Below, piece after piece: positions 27,009 through 29,990 of a stretch of DNA of 64,000 nt (the stretch's first letter is position 1; each line of letters begins with the position of its first letter). The notes under the pieces are model-generated. The model did no database searches and had not been told where the DNA came from. It worked only from the letters and a program-made list of their open reading frames with translations. The position numbers were made by a program, and so were the translations under genes. Source of the DNA: Escherichia coli. GTDB lineage: Bacteria; Pseudomonadota; Gammaproteobacteria; Enterobacterales; Enterobacteriaceae. The stretch lies in NCBI RefSeq assembly GCF_003334785.1, contig NZ_QOWV01000001.1; one strand, 5' to 3'.

Positions 27009-28904
27009 ATGGCAGGGAAGTTTCGCTGCATTTTGCTGTTGATAGCAGGGCTGTTTGTATCATCTCTAAGTTATGCAGAAAACACGGAGATCCCTTCTTA
27101 TGAAGAAGGGATCTCGCTCTTTGATGTTGAAGCCACTCTGCAACCAGATGGGGTGCTCGACATCAAAGAAAATATTCATTTTCAGGCGCGAAATCAGCAG
27201 ATTAAGCACGGCTTTTATCGTGATTTACCACGACTATGGATGCAGCCTGATGGGGACGCTGCACTGCTGAACTATCATATTGTTGGCGTCACCCGTGATG
27301 GTATTCCTGAACCCTGGCATCTTGACTGGCATATCGGGTTAATGAGTATTGTCGTGGGCGATAAACAACGTTTCTTGCCTCAAGGCGACTATCATTATCA
27401 AATTCATTATCAGGTTAAAAATGCTTTCCTGCGTGAGGGGGATTCTGATCTGCTAATCTGGAACGTGACCGGTAACCACTGGCCGTTTGAAATTTATAAG
27501 ACCCGTTTTTCTCTCCAGTTCTCTAATATTGCGGGTAATCCATTTAGCGAAATCGATCTCTTTACCGGAGAAGAGGGCGACACATATCGTAATGGCCGCA
27601 TCCTTGAGGACGGAAGAATTGAATCCCGCGATCCGTTTTATCGTGAAGATTTCACGGTCCTCTACCGCTGGCCTCACGCTTTACTTAGCAATGCCTCGGC
27701 TCCGCAAACGACGAATATTTTCAGCCATCTTCTTTTACCCTCCACGTCATCGTTGTTAATTTGGTTTCCGTGTCTGTTCCTGGTTTGTGGATGGTTATAT
27801 CTCTGGAAGCGCAGGCCGCAATTTACGCCGGTAGATGTGATTGAAACCGATGTCATTCCGCCAGATTACACGCCCGGCATGTTACGTCTCGATGCGAAGC
27901 TAGTTTACGACGATAAAGGTTTTTGTGCCGATATCGTAAATCTGATTGTGAAAGGAAAAATTCATCTGGAAGATCAGTCTGACAAGAACCAGCAAATCCT
28001 GATTCGTGTTAATGAAGGCGCGACCAGAAATAATGCGGTATTACTGCCCGCAGAGCAGTTATTACTGGAAGCGTTATTTCGTAAAGGCGATAAGGTCGTT
28101 CTTACGGGGAGACGCAACAGAGTCTTACGCAGGGCATTTTTACGGATGCAGAAATTTTATCTGCCGCGTAAAAAGTCTTCGTTTTACCGGTCTGATACTT
28201 TTTTGCAATGGGGTGGACTGGCAATATTGGCGGTCATTCTTTACGGTAACTTGAGTCCTGTAGGCTGGGCAGGAATGAGTCTGGTGGGCGATATGTTTAT
28301 TATGATCTGCTGGATTATTCCTTTTTTATTTTGTTCCCTTGAGCTTTTGTTTGCCCGCGATGATGACAAGCCTTGCGTTAATCGTGTAATCATCACTTTG
28401 TTTTTACCACTGATTTGTTCAGGCGTGGCCTTCTATTCTCTCTACATCAATGTCGGAGATGTATTCTTTTACTGGTATATGCCAGCGGGTTATTTTACCG
28501 CTGTTTGCCTGACCGGTTATCTCACTGGCATGGGGTATATTTTTCTGCCAAAGTTTACCCAAACTGGACAGCAACGTTATGCCCACGGTGAAGCTATCGT
28601 TAACTATCTTGCGCGTAAAGAGGCAGCAACACACAGTGGACGTCGGCGGAAAGGGGAAACACGGAAACTGGATTACGCGTTGCTAGGTTGGGCTATATCG
28701 GCAAATTTGGGGAGGGAATGGGCGTTACGCATTGCCCCTTCGCTTTCTTCGGCGATTCGCGCTCCAGAGATTGCCCGTAACGGCGTTTTATTCTCATTAC
28801 AGACGCACCTAAGTTGCGGGGCCAATACCAGTTTGTTGGGGCGAAGTTATTCCGGTGGTGGTGCTGGCGGCGGCGCGGGTGGCGGAGGCGGTGGTGGCTG
28901 GTAA
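27009..28904 (+). CDS. yciQ: DUF2207 family membrane protein YciQ with Gly-rich C-terminal tail
   Basis: 631 aa; N-terminal signal/TM, several TM helices in C-terminal half, tail SGGGAGGGAGGGGGGGW. Confidence 0.88.
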   Translation: MAGKFRCILLLIAGLFVSSLSYAENTEIPSYEEGISLFDVEATLQPDGVLDIKENIHFQARNQQIKHGFYRDLPRLWMQPDGDAALLNYHIVGVTRDGIPEPWHLDWHIGLMSIVVGDKQRFLPQGDYHYQIHYQVKNAFLREGDSDLLIWNVTGNHWPFEIYKTRFSLQFSNIAGNPFSEIDLFTGEEGDTYRNGRILEDGRIESRDPFYREDFTVLYRWPHALLSNASAPQTTNIFSHLLLPSTSSLLIWFPCLFLVCGWLYLWKRRPQFTPVDVIETDVIPPDYTPGMLRLDAKLVYDDKGFCADIVNLIVKGKIHLEDQSDKNQQILIRVNEGATRNNAVLLPAEQLLLEALFRKGDKVVLTGRRNRVLRRAFLRMQKFYLPRKKSSFYRSDTFLQWGGLAILAVILYGNLSPVGWAGMSLVGDMFIMICWIIPFLFCSLELLFARDDDKPCVNRVIITLFLPLICSGVAFYSLYINVGDVFFYWYMPAGYFTAVCLTGYLTGMGYIFLPKFTQTGQQRYAHGEAIVNYLARKEAATHSGRRRKGETRKLDYALLGWAISANLGREWALRIAPSLSSAIRAPEIARNGVLFSLQTHLSCGANTSLLGRSYSGGGAGGGAGGGGGGGW

Positions 28905-29114
28905 TTAAGCTGATGTTAATCGAAACAAGCTTTAACCATAAAGATAGTGTAGTATGTTGCGCCTCAAAGCCAGGCCGATAAACGTCGAGTCGTTTACTTA
29001 AGGCCTGAAGAGTTCAAACAGACTTTACTATCAGTGAGTCAGATGTAAGTTCTGACTCACTGTTGCACAAAAGCATATCAGACGCCTGGGAAGGCGACAC
29101 CAAAAGGAAGCTCT

Positions 29115-29990
29115 ATGAGCGAAAAGCTACAGAAAGTGCTGGCGCGTGCCGGCCACGGTTCTCGCCGTGAAATCGAATCTATTATTGAAGCCGGTCGTGT
29201 GAGTGTTGATGGCAAAATTGCTAAACTCGGCGATCGTGTTGAAGTTACCCCTGGATTGAAAATCCGTATCGATGGTCACCTGATTTCGGTACGTGAGTCC
29301 GCTGAACAAATTTGTCGCGTTCTGGCCTATTACAAACCGGAAGGTGAGTTGTGTACCCGTAACGATCCGGAAGGACGTCCAACGGTGTTTGACCGTCTGC
29401 CAAAACTGCGTGGCGCACGCTGGATTGCCGTGGGTCGCTTGGACGTTAATACCTGTGGTCTGCTGCTGTTCACCACCGATGGTGAACTGGCAAACCGTTT
29501 AATGCACCCAAGCCGTGAAGTTGAACGTGAATATGCCGTGCGTGTATTTGGTCAGGTTGACGACGCGAAACTGCGTGATTTGAGTCGTGGCGTGCAGTTG
29601 GAAGATGGTCCGGCAGCTTTTAAAACCATCAAGTTCAGCGGCGGCGAAGGGATCAACCAGTGGTACAACGTGACTCTGACCGAAGGCCGTAACCGTGAAG
29701 TTCGTCGTCTGTGGGAAGCGGTTGGTGTGCAGGTGAGCCGCCTGATCCGTGTTCGTTACGGTGATATCCCACTGCCAAAAGGTCTGCCACGCGGTGGCTG
29801 GACGGAGCTGGACCTCGCCCAGACTAACTATCTGCGCGAACTGGTGGAGCTACCGCCAGAAACCAGCTCTAAAGTCGCTGTAGAAAAAGACCGTCGTCGC
29901 ATGAAGGCGAATCAGATTCGTCGTGCGGTGAAACGTCACAGTCAGGTGAGCGGCGGTCGTCGTTCTGGCGGACGTAATAATAACGGTTAA
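29115..29990 (+). CDS. rluB: 23S rRNA pseudouridine(2605) synthase RluB
   Basis: 291 aa; S4 domain [21 protein letters not shown]..., Arg/Gly-rich tail. Confidence 0.95.

Follow-up and report, generated by a model that had tools for sequence, protein, structure and literature searches.

The glycine-rich end of Escherichia coli YciQ reads as a conserved peptide motif of DUF2207 proteins and not as a phase-variation tract

What is a run of GGN and GCN codons doing at the very end of a gene for a membrane protein? The gene is yciQ, an open reading frame (ORF) at 27009..28904 on the plus strand (631 amino acids (aa), with the stop codon at 28902-28904 included), in a stretch of 64,000 nucleotides from the Escherichia coli contig NZ_QOWV01000001.1, here called the window, to which all positions refer. 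The initial annotation had described a Gly/Ala tail at 28851-28904, read the underlying tract as a slipped-strand hotspot that could vary tail length or shift the frame, and called such an ending unusual for an inner-membrane protein. The tail itself is real. Codons 615-631 (28851-28901: TCC GGT GGT GGT GCT GGC GGC GGC GCG GGT GGC GGA GGC GGT GGT GGC TGG) encode SGGGAGGGAGGGGGGGW and are followed directly by the stop, so that the C-terminus of YciQ is ...LLGRSYSGGGAGGGAGGGGGGGW-stop. As the same annotation had said, YciQ is a protein without established function. We conclude with high confidence that its end is a conserved protein motif, not a DNA switch.

Pfam places YciQ among the DUF2207 proteins, with PF09972 at aa 35-175 (independent E-value 2.1e-21) and PF20990, a C-terminal membrane domain, at aa 284-535 (independent E-value 5.6e-9), and an identical match to the same DNA carries the yciQ annotation in RefSeq E. 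coli genomes. In a homologue search that pre-selects candidates through shared 5-mer words, relatives down to ~23% identity end in ...SSGGGG[F/S]SGGGGGGGGGGG[W/F/R], an ending that can also be written ...GGG[F/S]SGGGGGGGGGGGW. Because such a 5-mer index favours poly-Gly, the claim that the tail belongs to the family rests on an index-free repeat, in which phmmer was run against 1.84 billion cluster representatives and returned 4,368 matches at E<=1e-3. Among the best 150 of these 4,368 matches, 126 are at least 480 aa long; 110 of the 126 (87%) end in W and 6 in R, and at least four consecutive G precede the terminal aromatic residue in 92 of these 126 full-length DUF2207 representatives. The exceptions without W look like fragments or frameshifts. 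One of them, P0083, carries a poly-Arg end (RRRRRRRRGRRL...) in place of poly-Gly, probably owing to a shift of frame within a GGC-rich tract, whether genuine or a sequencing error.

Residues were counted position by position in YciQ and 107 full-length homologues (108 sequences), a set pre-selected for terminal W and thus unbiased only at the other positions. Counting back from the terminus, S occupies position -13 in 101 of 108, G is found in at least 105 of 108 at each of positions -12 to -10 and -8 to -4, position -9 is variable (G 80, S 13, A 7, R 6), position -3 is G in 100 and R in 6, and position -2 is G throughout (108/108). The resulting consensus, S-GGG-x-GGGGG-x-G-W-COOH, is a near-invariant 13-mer, in which 11 positions hardly vary across more than 100 clusters that are mutually <50% identical; G624, G627 and W631 are invariant in the family alignment. 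A Ser/Gly-rich stretch of 20-40 residues with variable sequence lies N-terminal to this core. The K-12 end, AGGGAGGGGGGGW, fits the consensus at 12 of 13 positions, with A for S at -13 and an allowed A at -9. YciQ thus shares its domains, its architecture and its Ser/Gly-rich poly-Gly-Trp end with the DUF2207 family at large (PF09972 + PF20990; COG4907-type, e.g., Streptococcus mutans SMU.243), differing in a slightly degenerate tail (Ala at -13 and -9, a GGGA repeat instead of GGG[F/S]S), in having no LemA neighbour, and in being accessory within its species, with deletion alleles. Far from unusual, the ending is a hallmark of DUF2207 proteins, and a variant of it is found on YgcG and other TPM proteins. 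Kept across phyla with differing codon usage, the tail is conserved as a peptide, the repetitive DNA being a by-product of the glycine codons.

Deletion of SMU.243 in S. mutans lowers acid and oxidative stress tolerance and reduces biofilm, and the authors remark on its Gly/Ser-rich intracellular C-terminus (PMC10457818). A sequence search of the PDB returned no solved DUF2207 relative, the matches being spurious ones to artificial Gly linkers.

The variant tail on the TPM-domain protein YgcG of E. coli K-12 shows that the ending is shared with a second family. We scanned one genome per species for the pattern GGGG-x-x-G-x-W-stop, designed on YciQ and YgcG, and obtained at least 120 loci, the matches listed spanning a wide diversity of bacteria as well as archaea (Nanoarchaeota, Methanoperedens). 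Among these listed matches are 96 ORFs of at least 100 aa, of which 76 match TPM_phosphatase and 13-15 match DUF2207 in Pfam; there is almost nothing else apart from two RRM proteins with RGG tails, which we take as chance. As the pattern was built on YciQ and YgcG, finding both families is unsurprising, and the informative part is that ~95% of the listed endings fall in those two. For tails of the TPM type, the consensus reads ...GGFGGFGGG[S/G/D]FGGGGA[S/G]G[x]W. Like YciQ, TPM proteins (PF04536; YgcG; 'Psb32-like') have an exported domain, an odd number of transmembrane segments (TMs) and a Gly-rich tail on the cytoplasmic side ending in W, and both families are frequently linked to LemA. 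They differ from YciQ in an unrelated ectodomain, in having several aromatics in the tail, and in the absence of a cytoplasmic domain from the same chain. Archaeal tail-bearing genes of the TPM type include two in a single Nanoarchaeota contig (L090 4443-5291 and 5889-7865) and one in a Candidatus Methanoperedens metagenome-assembled genome (L058 1137-1994).

Within the matches listed, a same-strand LemA gene (PF04011) adjoins 53 of 80 TPM-tail genes and 5 of 12 DUF2207-tail genes, and a second TPM gene, without tail or signal peptide, abuts 39 of the 80 TPM-tail genes. The LemA neighbours (within L013-L132; e.g., L092 7152-7790 and L106 5909-6457) end in a conserved ...VPxVxF and occur in TM-anchored and lipoprotein forms. 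Many of them are lipoproteins (LSGCG), and since the LemA domain of a lipoprotein is probably periplasmic, its contact with a cytoplasmic tail is unlikely. LemA was therefore rejected as a general explanation for the tail's partner; in addition, no LemA gene adjoins yciQ in the window. A Flavobacterium mutant under envelope stress shows induction of LemA and of a TPM gene (PMC13236525). In E. coli K-12, ygcG lies directly after yqcG, whose annotation is that of a small cell-envelope stress response protein (L012 6558-6698). The solved TPM structures found in the PDB search are soluble domains only. The literature that we found on TPM, LemA or the glycine-rich tail makes passing mentions only, and we found no publication that defines the motif, notes its sharing between DUF2207 and TPM proteins, or proposes a function for it.

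On which side of the membrane does the tail lie? In the AlphaFold2 topology, YciQ runs from a signal peptide through a periplasmic domain, TM1, a cytoplasmic domain and four further TMs to the C-terminal region. Acidic residues predominate in the exported domain, and K and R abound in the loops placed in the cytoplasm, a positive-inside bias. In DUF2207 proteins at large, the stretch from the cytoplasmic domain to the APT motif measures either ~48-62 aa or ~102-154 aa, equal to two or four TMs, and no class with an odd number of TMs after the cytoplasmic domain was found among DUF2207 proteins. Most TPM-tail proteins have a signal or anchor segment and exactly one later TM, and in 81 of them the 15 residues past the last TM hold 194 K+R versus 69 D+E. 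Topology, charge bias and TM parity therefore make a strong case that the tail is cytoplasmic in both families. The elements of yciQ are as follows.

27009..28904, plus strand: yciQ coding sequence with stop, DUF2207 family (ORF list, PF09972 and PF20990, RefSeq annotation)
27009..27077, plus strand: signal peptide or N-terminal hydrophobic helix, aa 1-23 (hydropathy peak at 5-23; AlphaFold2 helix 2-17)
27078..27716, plus strand: periplasmic beta-sandwich domain, aa 24-236, the DUF2207 N-terminal part (Pfam; AlphaFold2 all-beta, confidence >90; 18 K+R vs 32 D+E; Foldseek)
27744..27809, plus strand: TM1, aa 246-267 (hydropathy; AlphaFold2 helix 246-267)
27810..28193, plus strand: predicted cytoplasmic winged-helix-like domain, aa 268-395 (25 K+R in the loop; AlphaFold2 secondary structure)
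28092-28103, plus strand: predicted strand 362-365 within the winged-helix-like domain (AlphaFold2)
28194..28544, plus strand: TM2-TM5, aa 396-512 (AlphaFold2 helices 396-415, 423-451, 457-485 and 495-512)
28545..28760, plus strand: conserved cytoplasmic helical region, aa 513-584 (invariant columns; AlphaFold2 helices; 15 K+R vs 6 D+E from aa 487 to the end)
28694..28790, plus strand: hypervariable block directly 5' of the tract (sliding-window identity and alignment of seven alleles)
28761..28856, plus strand: low-confidence tether, aa 585-616 (AlphaFold2 confidence <50; Ser/Gly-rich in most family members)
28851..28901, plus strand: reported tail SGGGAGGGAGGGGGGGW, aa 615-631 (ORF; in-frame E. 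coli indels in its N-terminal part, ~28851-28877)
28863..28901, plus strand: conserved terminal 13-mer AGGGAGGGGGGGW, aa 619-631 (counts in 108 homologues; AlphaFold2 confidence 89-95, strand 627-630)

The full-length AlphaFold2 model, built on the 108-sequence alignment, has a mean predicted local distance difference test score (pLDDT, the confidence given above) of 85.7 and a predicted template modelling score of 0.77. It comprises a signal helix, a beta-sandwich (34-222), TM1 (246-267), a winged-helix-like domain (helices 289-297, 302-314, 347-356 and 371-389; strands 318-323, 328-333 and 362-365), four TMs (396-512) and conserved helices (518-601). The linker 585-616 falls below pLDDT 50, and residues 621-631 reach 89-95, with 627-630 modelled as a strand or bridge. 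In a truncation control (residues 371-631, with the matching 40-sequence alignment), overall confidence was 73 compared with 85.7; the tail dropped to pLDDT 33-39 and lost its strand, while the TM bundle and helices kept ~75-85 and the 392/516 bridge persisted. In these models, docking of the tail thus seems to need residues 1-370, and because the winged-helix-like domain is the only cytoplasmic part of that region, it is the putative docking site, a conclusion that we hold with moderate confidence. Its strand 362-365 would be the obvious candidate partner.

How does the tract behave as DNA? It is an impure GGN/GCN sequence in which Tandem Repeats Finder sees a weak 15-nt period of 2.3 copies with 84% matches, and neither mononucleotide runs nor runs of identical codons exceed 3. 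The window has a single match to the string (GGN)7-TGG-stop, and none of 100 dinucleotide-preserving shuffles has one. Pairs of adjacent identical Gly codons number 502 in 96 tails, versus 484 +/- 15 in shuffles; being neither enriched nor avoided, they give no signal of selection against slippage. A reading of the tract as an RNA or regulatory element was dropped: the Rfam scan of 28500-29300 on both strands gave only a chance snoRNA match (19.7 bits vs a gathering score of 90), and promoter and terminator scans of 28700-29200 returned nothing exceeding shuffle expectation. No minus-strand ORF of at least 50 aa overlaps the tract.

The length of the tract was surveyed with a 170-nt query anchored on both sides, which matches 3,977 of 5,426 complete E. 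coli genomes, and 60 records were drawn at even steps down the match ranking. The K-12 length is kept in 46 of these, 6 are shorter by 6 nt and 6 by 12 nt, one has lost 36 nt in frame, and one (L010/H95) differs by 1 nt that lies in the spacer, its tail being the other 17-mer, SGGGSGAGGGAGGGGGW. Translated, the 60 genomes have tails of 17 residues (47), 15 residues (6), 13 residues (6) and 5 residues (1). The 17-residue alleles come in two compositions, SGGGAGGGAGGGGGGGW and SGGGSGAGGGAGGGGGW, and the alleles fetched also include 15-residue tails (SGGGSGAGGGGGGGW and SGGGSGAGGGGGSGW), the 13-residue tail of the O157:H7 type (SGGAAGGGGGGGW) and a 19-residue tail (SGGGSGAGGGAGGGGGGGW). By allele-specific queries, 316 genomes carry the 13-residue O157 haplotype, at least 135 the 15-residue form and 5 the 19-residue form, the last number counting only genomes with the exact haplotype, because its 95-99% band is probably contaminated by partial alignments. 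Length therefore does vary among E. coli genomes, with tails of 5-19 residues.

All of these changes (-36, -12, -6 and +6 nt) are multiples of 3, they are flanked by short direct repeats (GGTGGCGG..GGTGGCGG, GGTGGTGG..GGTGGTGG), the pattern that slippage or repeat-mediated deletion would be expected to leave, and they lie mostly N-terminal to the 13-mer core. None of the 60 evenly sampled genomes has a frameshifted allele, and the terminal G(n)W is kept in every intact allele. The tract is thus a local indel hotspot, and the proposal of a slipped-strand hotspot stands for in-frame length change (tails of 5, 13, 15, 17 and 19 residues) and falls for the shift of frame: with triplet units and both kinds of run limited to 3, it cannot shift frame by whole-unit slippage, and its polymorphism is in frame.

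Larger changes affect the gene as a whole. In strain E7-1N7 (L011 657-2516), a 36-nt in-frame deletion between GGTGGTGG repeats leaves the tail SGGGW on a protein of 619 aa. The allele of the O157:H7/O55:H7 type (L006 860-2443; 527 aa) has an in-frame 300-nt deletion, window ~27843-28142, that removes aa 279-378, essentially the entire winged-helix-like domain, with the frame and the G7W end kept. In strain LR-28 (L007 569-2215; window ~28650-28875), yciQ is a pseudogene with a ~250-nt deletion from the CGGCGGCGG stretch into the tract; the deletion joins this stretch of Arg codons to the GGN tract, apparently via G/C-rich microhomology. Finally, yciQ is missing from ~27% of E. coli (~1,447 of 5,426 complete genomes), where the match breaks off precisely at the stop of yciO and rluB comes ~100 nt later (e.g., L008 3632-3733 and L009 3632-3733). 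The block 28694-28790 exists in E. coli as two haplotypes that are 78-84% identical, with flanks at 93-100%, and strain EA2 (L002) follows K-12 up to ~28550 and the other haplotype thereafter, which suggests a recombination mosaic. Being accessory, AT-rich and mosaic, with deletion alleles, the gene is probably of modest importance to E. coli.

These observations can be assembled into a mechanism. The GGN/GCN tract encodes the DUF2207 signature, a disordered Ser/Gly tether followed by the 13-residue poly-Gly-Trp end. The terminal peptide would be a tethered one, folding back in the cytoplasm and docking in extended form onto the winged-helix-like domain (aa ~268-370) of the same chain or of a neighbouring protomer, where glycine would be needed for steric fit and the carboxylate of the terminal Trp would serve as an anchor. 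The docked tail may then act as a latch or strap on the cytoplasmic side of the protein. The repetitive DNA is a side effect of coding for poly-Gly; now and then it slips in frame or loses a segment between short direct repeats, and as such length changes are tolerated mainly in the tether, E. coli is polymorphic in tail length without phase variation. For the full chain, from the conserved motif through a cytoplasmic tethered peptide to docking as a latch or strap, we consider the case evenly balanced, the latch or strap function being the speculative part.

Several points weigh against this mechanism. The contact partner was arrived at by elimination and topology from the models, and the truncation also removed the periplasmic beta-sandwich, with which AlphaFold2 might have paired the tail, physically impossible as that would be. 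The truncated run also had a shallower alignment (40 vs 108 sequences) and lower overall confidence (73 vs 85.7), and a high pLDDT on an invariant low-complexity end may be over-confident. The O157 lineage still has the tail without the putative docking domain, one strain has a tail of SGGGW only, and selection looks weak in E. coli, where ~27% of genomes do without yciQ. Finally, TPM proteins with a similar tail have no cytoplasmic domain for it to dock on, and docking in cis is for that reason not the whole story.

Action in trans is accordingly the main rival: the tail would bind a cytoplasmic partner that serves both TPM and DUF2207 proteins, or would self-associate, by polyglycine-II-type packing or through aromatic 'stickers' with Gly 'spacers', and so cluster the proteins in the membrane. 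The only cytoplasmic part of TPM proteins is a tail of this very kind, often with several Gly-spaced F/W residues; in about half of the TPM-tail loci listed (39/80) the abutting tail-less, signal-less TPM gene offers a candidate partner, and a disordered tether of ~30 residues is long enough to reach a neighbouring protomer. That partner is a hypothetical candidate only, however, the YciQ-type tail has just one or two aromatics, AlphaFold2 confidently places it within a single chain, and LemA, the one neighbour common to both families, is often a lipoprotein and hence on the opposite side of the membrane. We regard action in trans as possible but unlikely. Improbable, in our view, is a passive appendage, a flexible non-binding Gly/Ser bristle selected for composition only, as a spacer or for solubility at the membrane surface. 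Such a bristle would fit the predicted disorder of the linker, the tolerance of E. coli for tails of 13-19 residues (5 in one strain) and the dispensability of the whole gene in 27% of genomes, but it would let G, S, A and N interchange anywhere, as they do in the preceding S/G-rich region, whereas the last 13 positions include 11 that hardly vary, W is the terminal residue in 87%, and AlphaFold2 treats the last ~11 residues unlike the linker.

A signal for proteolysis, also a candidate, strikes us as very improbable. FtsH starts on the cytoplasmic termini of membrane proteins, and AAA+ unfoldases grip Gly-rich tracts poorly; a tail that is both cytoplasmic and terminal might thus recruit an AAA+ protease as a non-polar C-terminal degron or resist the pore loops of FtsH or ClpXP, but neither role would account for a fixed register, a conserved Ser at -13 or a docked pose modelled with confidence. 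There remains the phase-variation locus, in which slipped-strand mispairing in the GGN tract would switch or tune YciQ through the length or frame of its tail. Length polymorphism is indeed concentrated in ~50 nt, the large LR-28 deletion (L007) ends in the tract, and the GC-rich distant homologue P0083 has probably been frameshifted to poly-Arg. Against these stand an impure triplet tract with identical-codon and mononucleotide runs of at most 3 and only 84% matches, E. coli indels that are all multiples of 3 with 0 of 60 sampled genomes frameshifted, adjacent identical Gly codons at chance frequency (502 vs 484 +/- 15), and a peptide conserved across phyla regardless of codon usage. A contingency or phase-variation locus at the yciQ tract is thereby essentially excluded.

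A broader reading would make the poly-Gly-Trp end an ancient, hitherto undefined cytoplasmic 'tethered ligand' module of bacterial and archaeal DUF2207 and TPM proteins that docks by strand addition onto a cognate cytoplasmic domain, in cis in DUF2207 and in trans in TPM proteins (e.g., onto the adjacent tail-less TPM protein). The module and LemA together would make up an envelope-stress device in which events at the exported domain drive a conformational or assembly switch in the cytoplasm; we offer this as a doubtful suggestion.

Simple-sequence contingency loci undergo slipped-strand phase variation, as in the repeat-controlled genes of Neisseria and Haemophilus. Like them, yciQ has a repetitive coding tract with indel polymorphism between strains; unlike them, its triplets are impure, its changes are in frame only, there is no ON/OFF switching, and its peptide is conserved across phyla. 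Of the features that mark such loci, the yciQ tract has length variation between strains, and it has neither a long perfect repeat or homopolymer nor frame switching. In PDZ-type recognition, a terminal aromatic residue and its free carboxylate are bound, as with the outer-membrane protein C-termini sensed by DegS. YciQ likewise has a terminal aromatic residue on a flexible tether and a predicted strand or bridge against another domain, but its ligand is poly-Gly without a side-chain-specific motif and the docking is predicted to be intramolecular; Pfam finds no PDZ domain in YciQ. In the GlyGly-CTERM/rhombosortase, PEP-CTERM/exosortase and LPXTG/sortase signals, a motif is followed by a hydrophobic helix and then a basic cluster. 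Such signals share with YciQ a conserved Gly-containing motif at the extreme C-terminus of envelope proteins, whereas YciQ ends in ...GGGGGGGW-stop with nothing after the Trp, and its tail is on the cytoplasmic side.

The gene and its family were already known; what is new is the rigid terminal 13-mer, its occurrence in two unrelated families, its consistently cytoplasmic placement and a testable docking model. Few bacterial envelope proteins without a known mechanism are as widespread as those of the DUF2207, TPM and LemA families, and a 13-residue signature across two families with unrelated ectodomains gives a concrete and cheap experimental handle on them. Natural E. coli variants add to it, with tails of 5-19 residues, an O157 allele without the putative docking domain and strains without the gene. 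In genome annotation, the GGN tract is best treated as coding for a conserved protein motif, and should not be taken for a phase-variation repeat.

Other features of YciQ complete the description. The helical region at aa 513-584 carries the family motifs APT..GR...D.IEGFK.YL and TPELFE..LPYA.AL.VE..W, and the family alignment has nearly invariant columns at T517, G520, G529, L534, L559, A562, A564, L565 and W571. A Foldseek search of the YciQ model against the PDB gave a generic beta-sandwich likeness for the periplasmic domain only and was uninformative on the tail. At the level of the domain alone (E ~1e-5), aa 24-236 resemble the N-terminal beta-sandwich of M1 aminopeptidases/LTA4 hydrolase (LTA4H) and also a subunit of the oligosaccharyltransferase complex. 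The NCBIfam scan assigned YciQ to no family, Pfam found no TPM domain (PF04536) in it, and PADLOC reported 0 defence families for YciQ and an insignificant match for YgcG. One report (PMC3120638), citing other work, lists overexpressed yciQ among the E. coli genes that raise the yield of G-protein-coupled receptors and other membrane proteins.

In the window, yciQ lies among rnm/trpH, yciO, rluB, cobO and yciK, and at 44-46% GC it is AT-richer than the adjoining genes (49-55%). In some strains (L001 3707-4797, L003, L004, L007 and L011), rluB and cobO are separated by two further hypothetical genes (~1,023 and 309 nt), which the window lacks. A perfect 11-nt inverted repeat, CAGTGAGTCAG-ATGTAAGTT-CTGACTCACTG, with no terminator call and no Rfam match, lies in the yciQ-rluB spacer at ~29035-29065, ~50 nt 5' of the rluB start.

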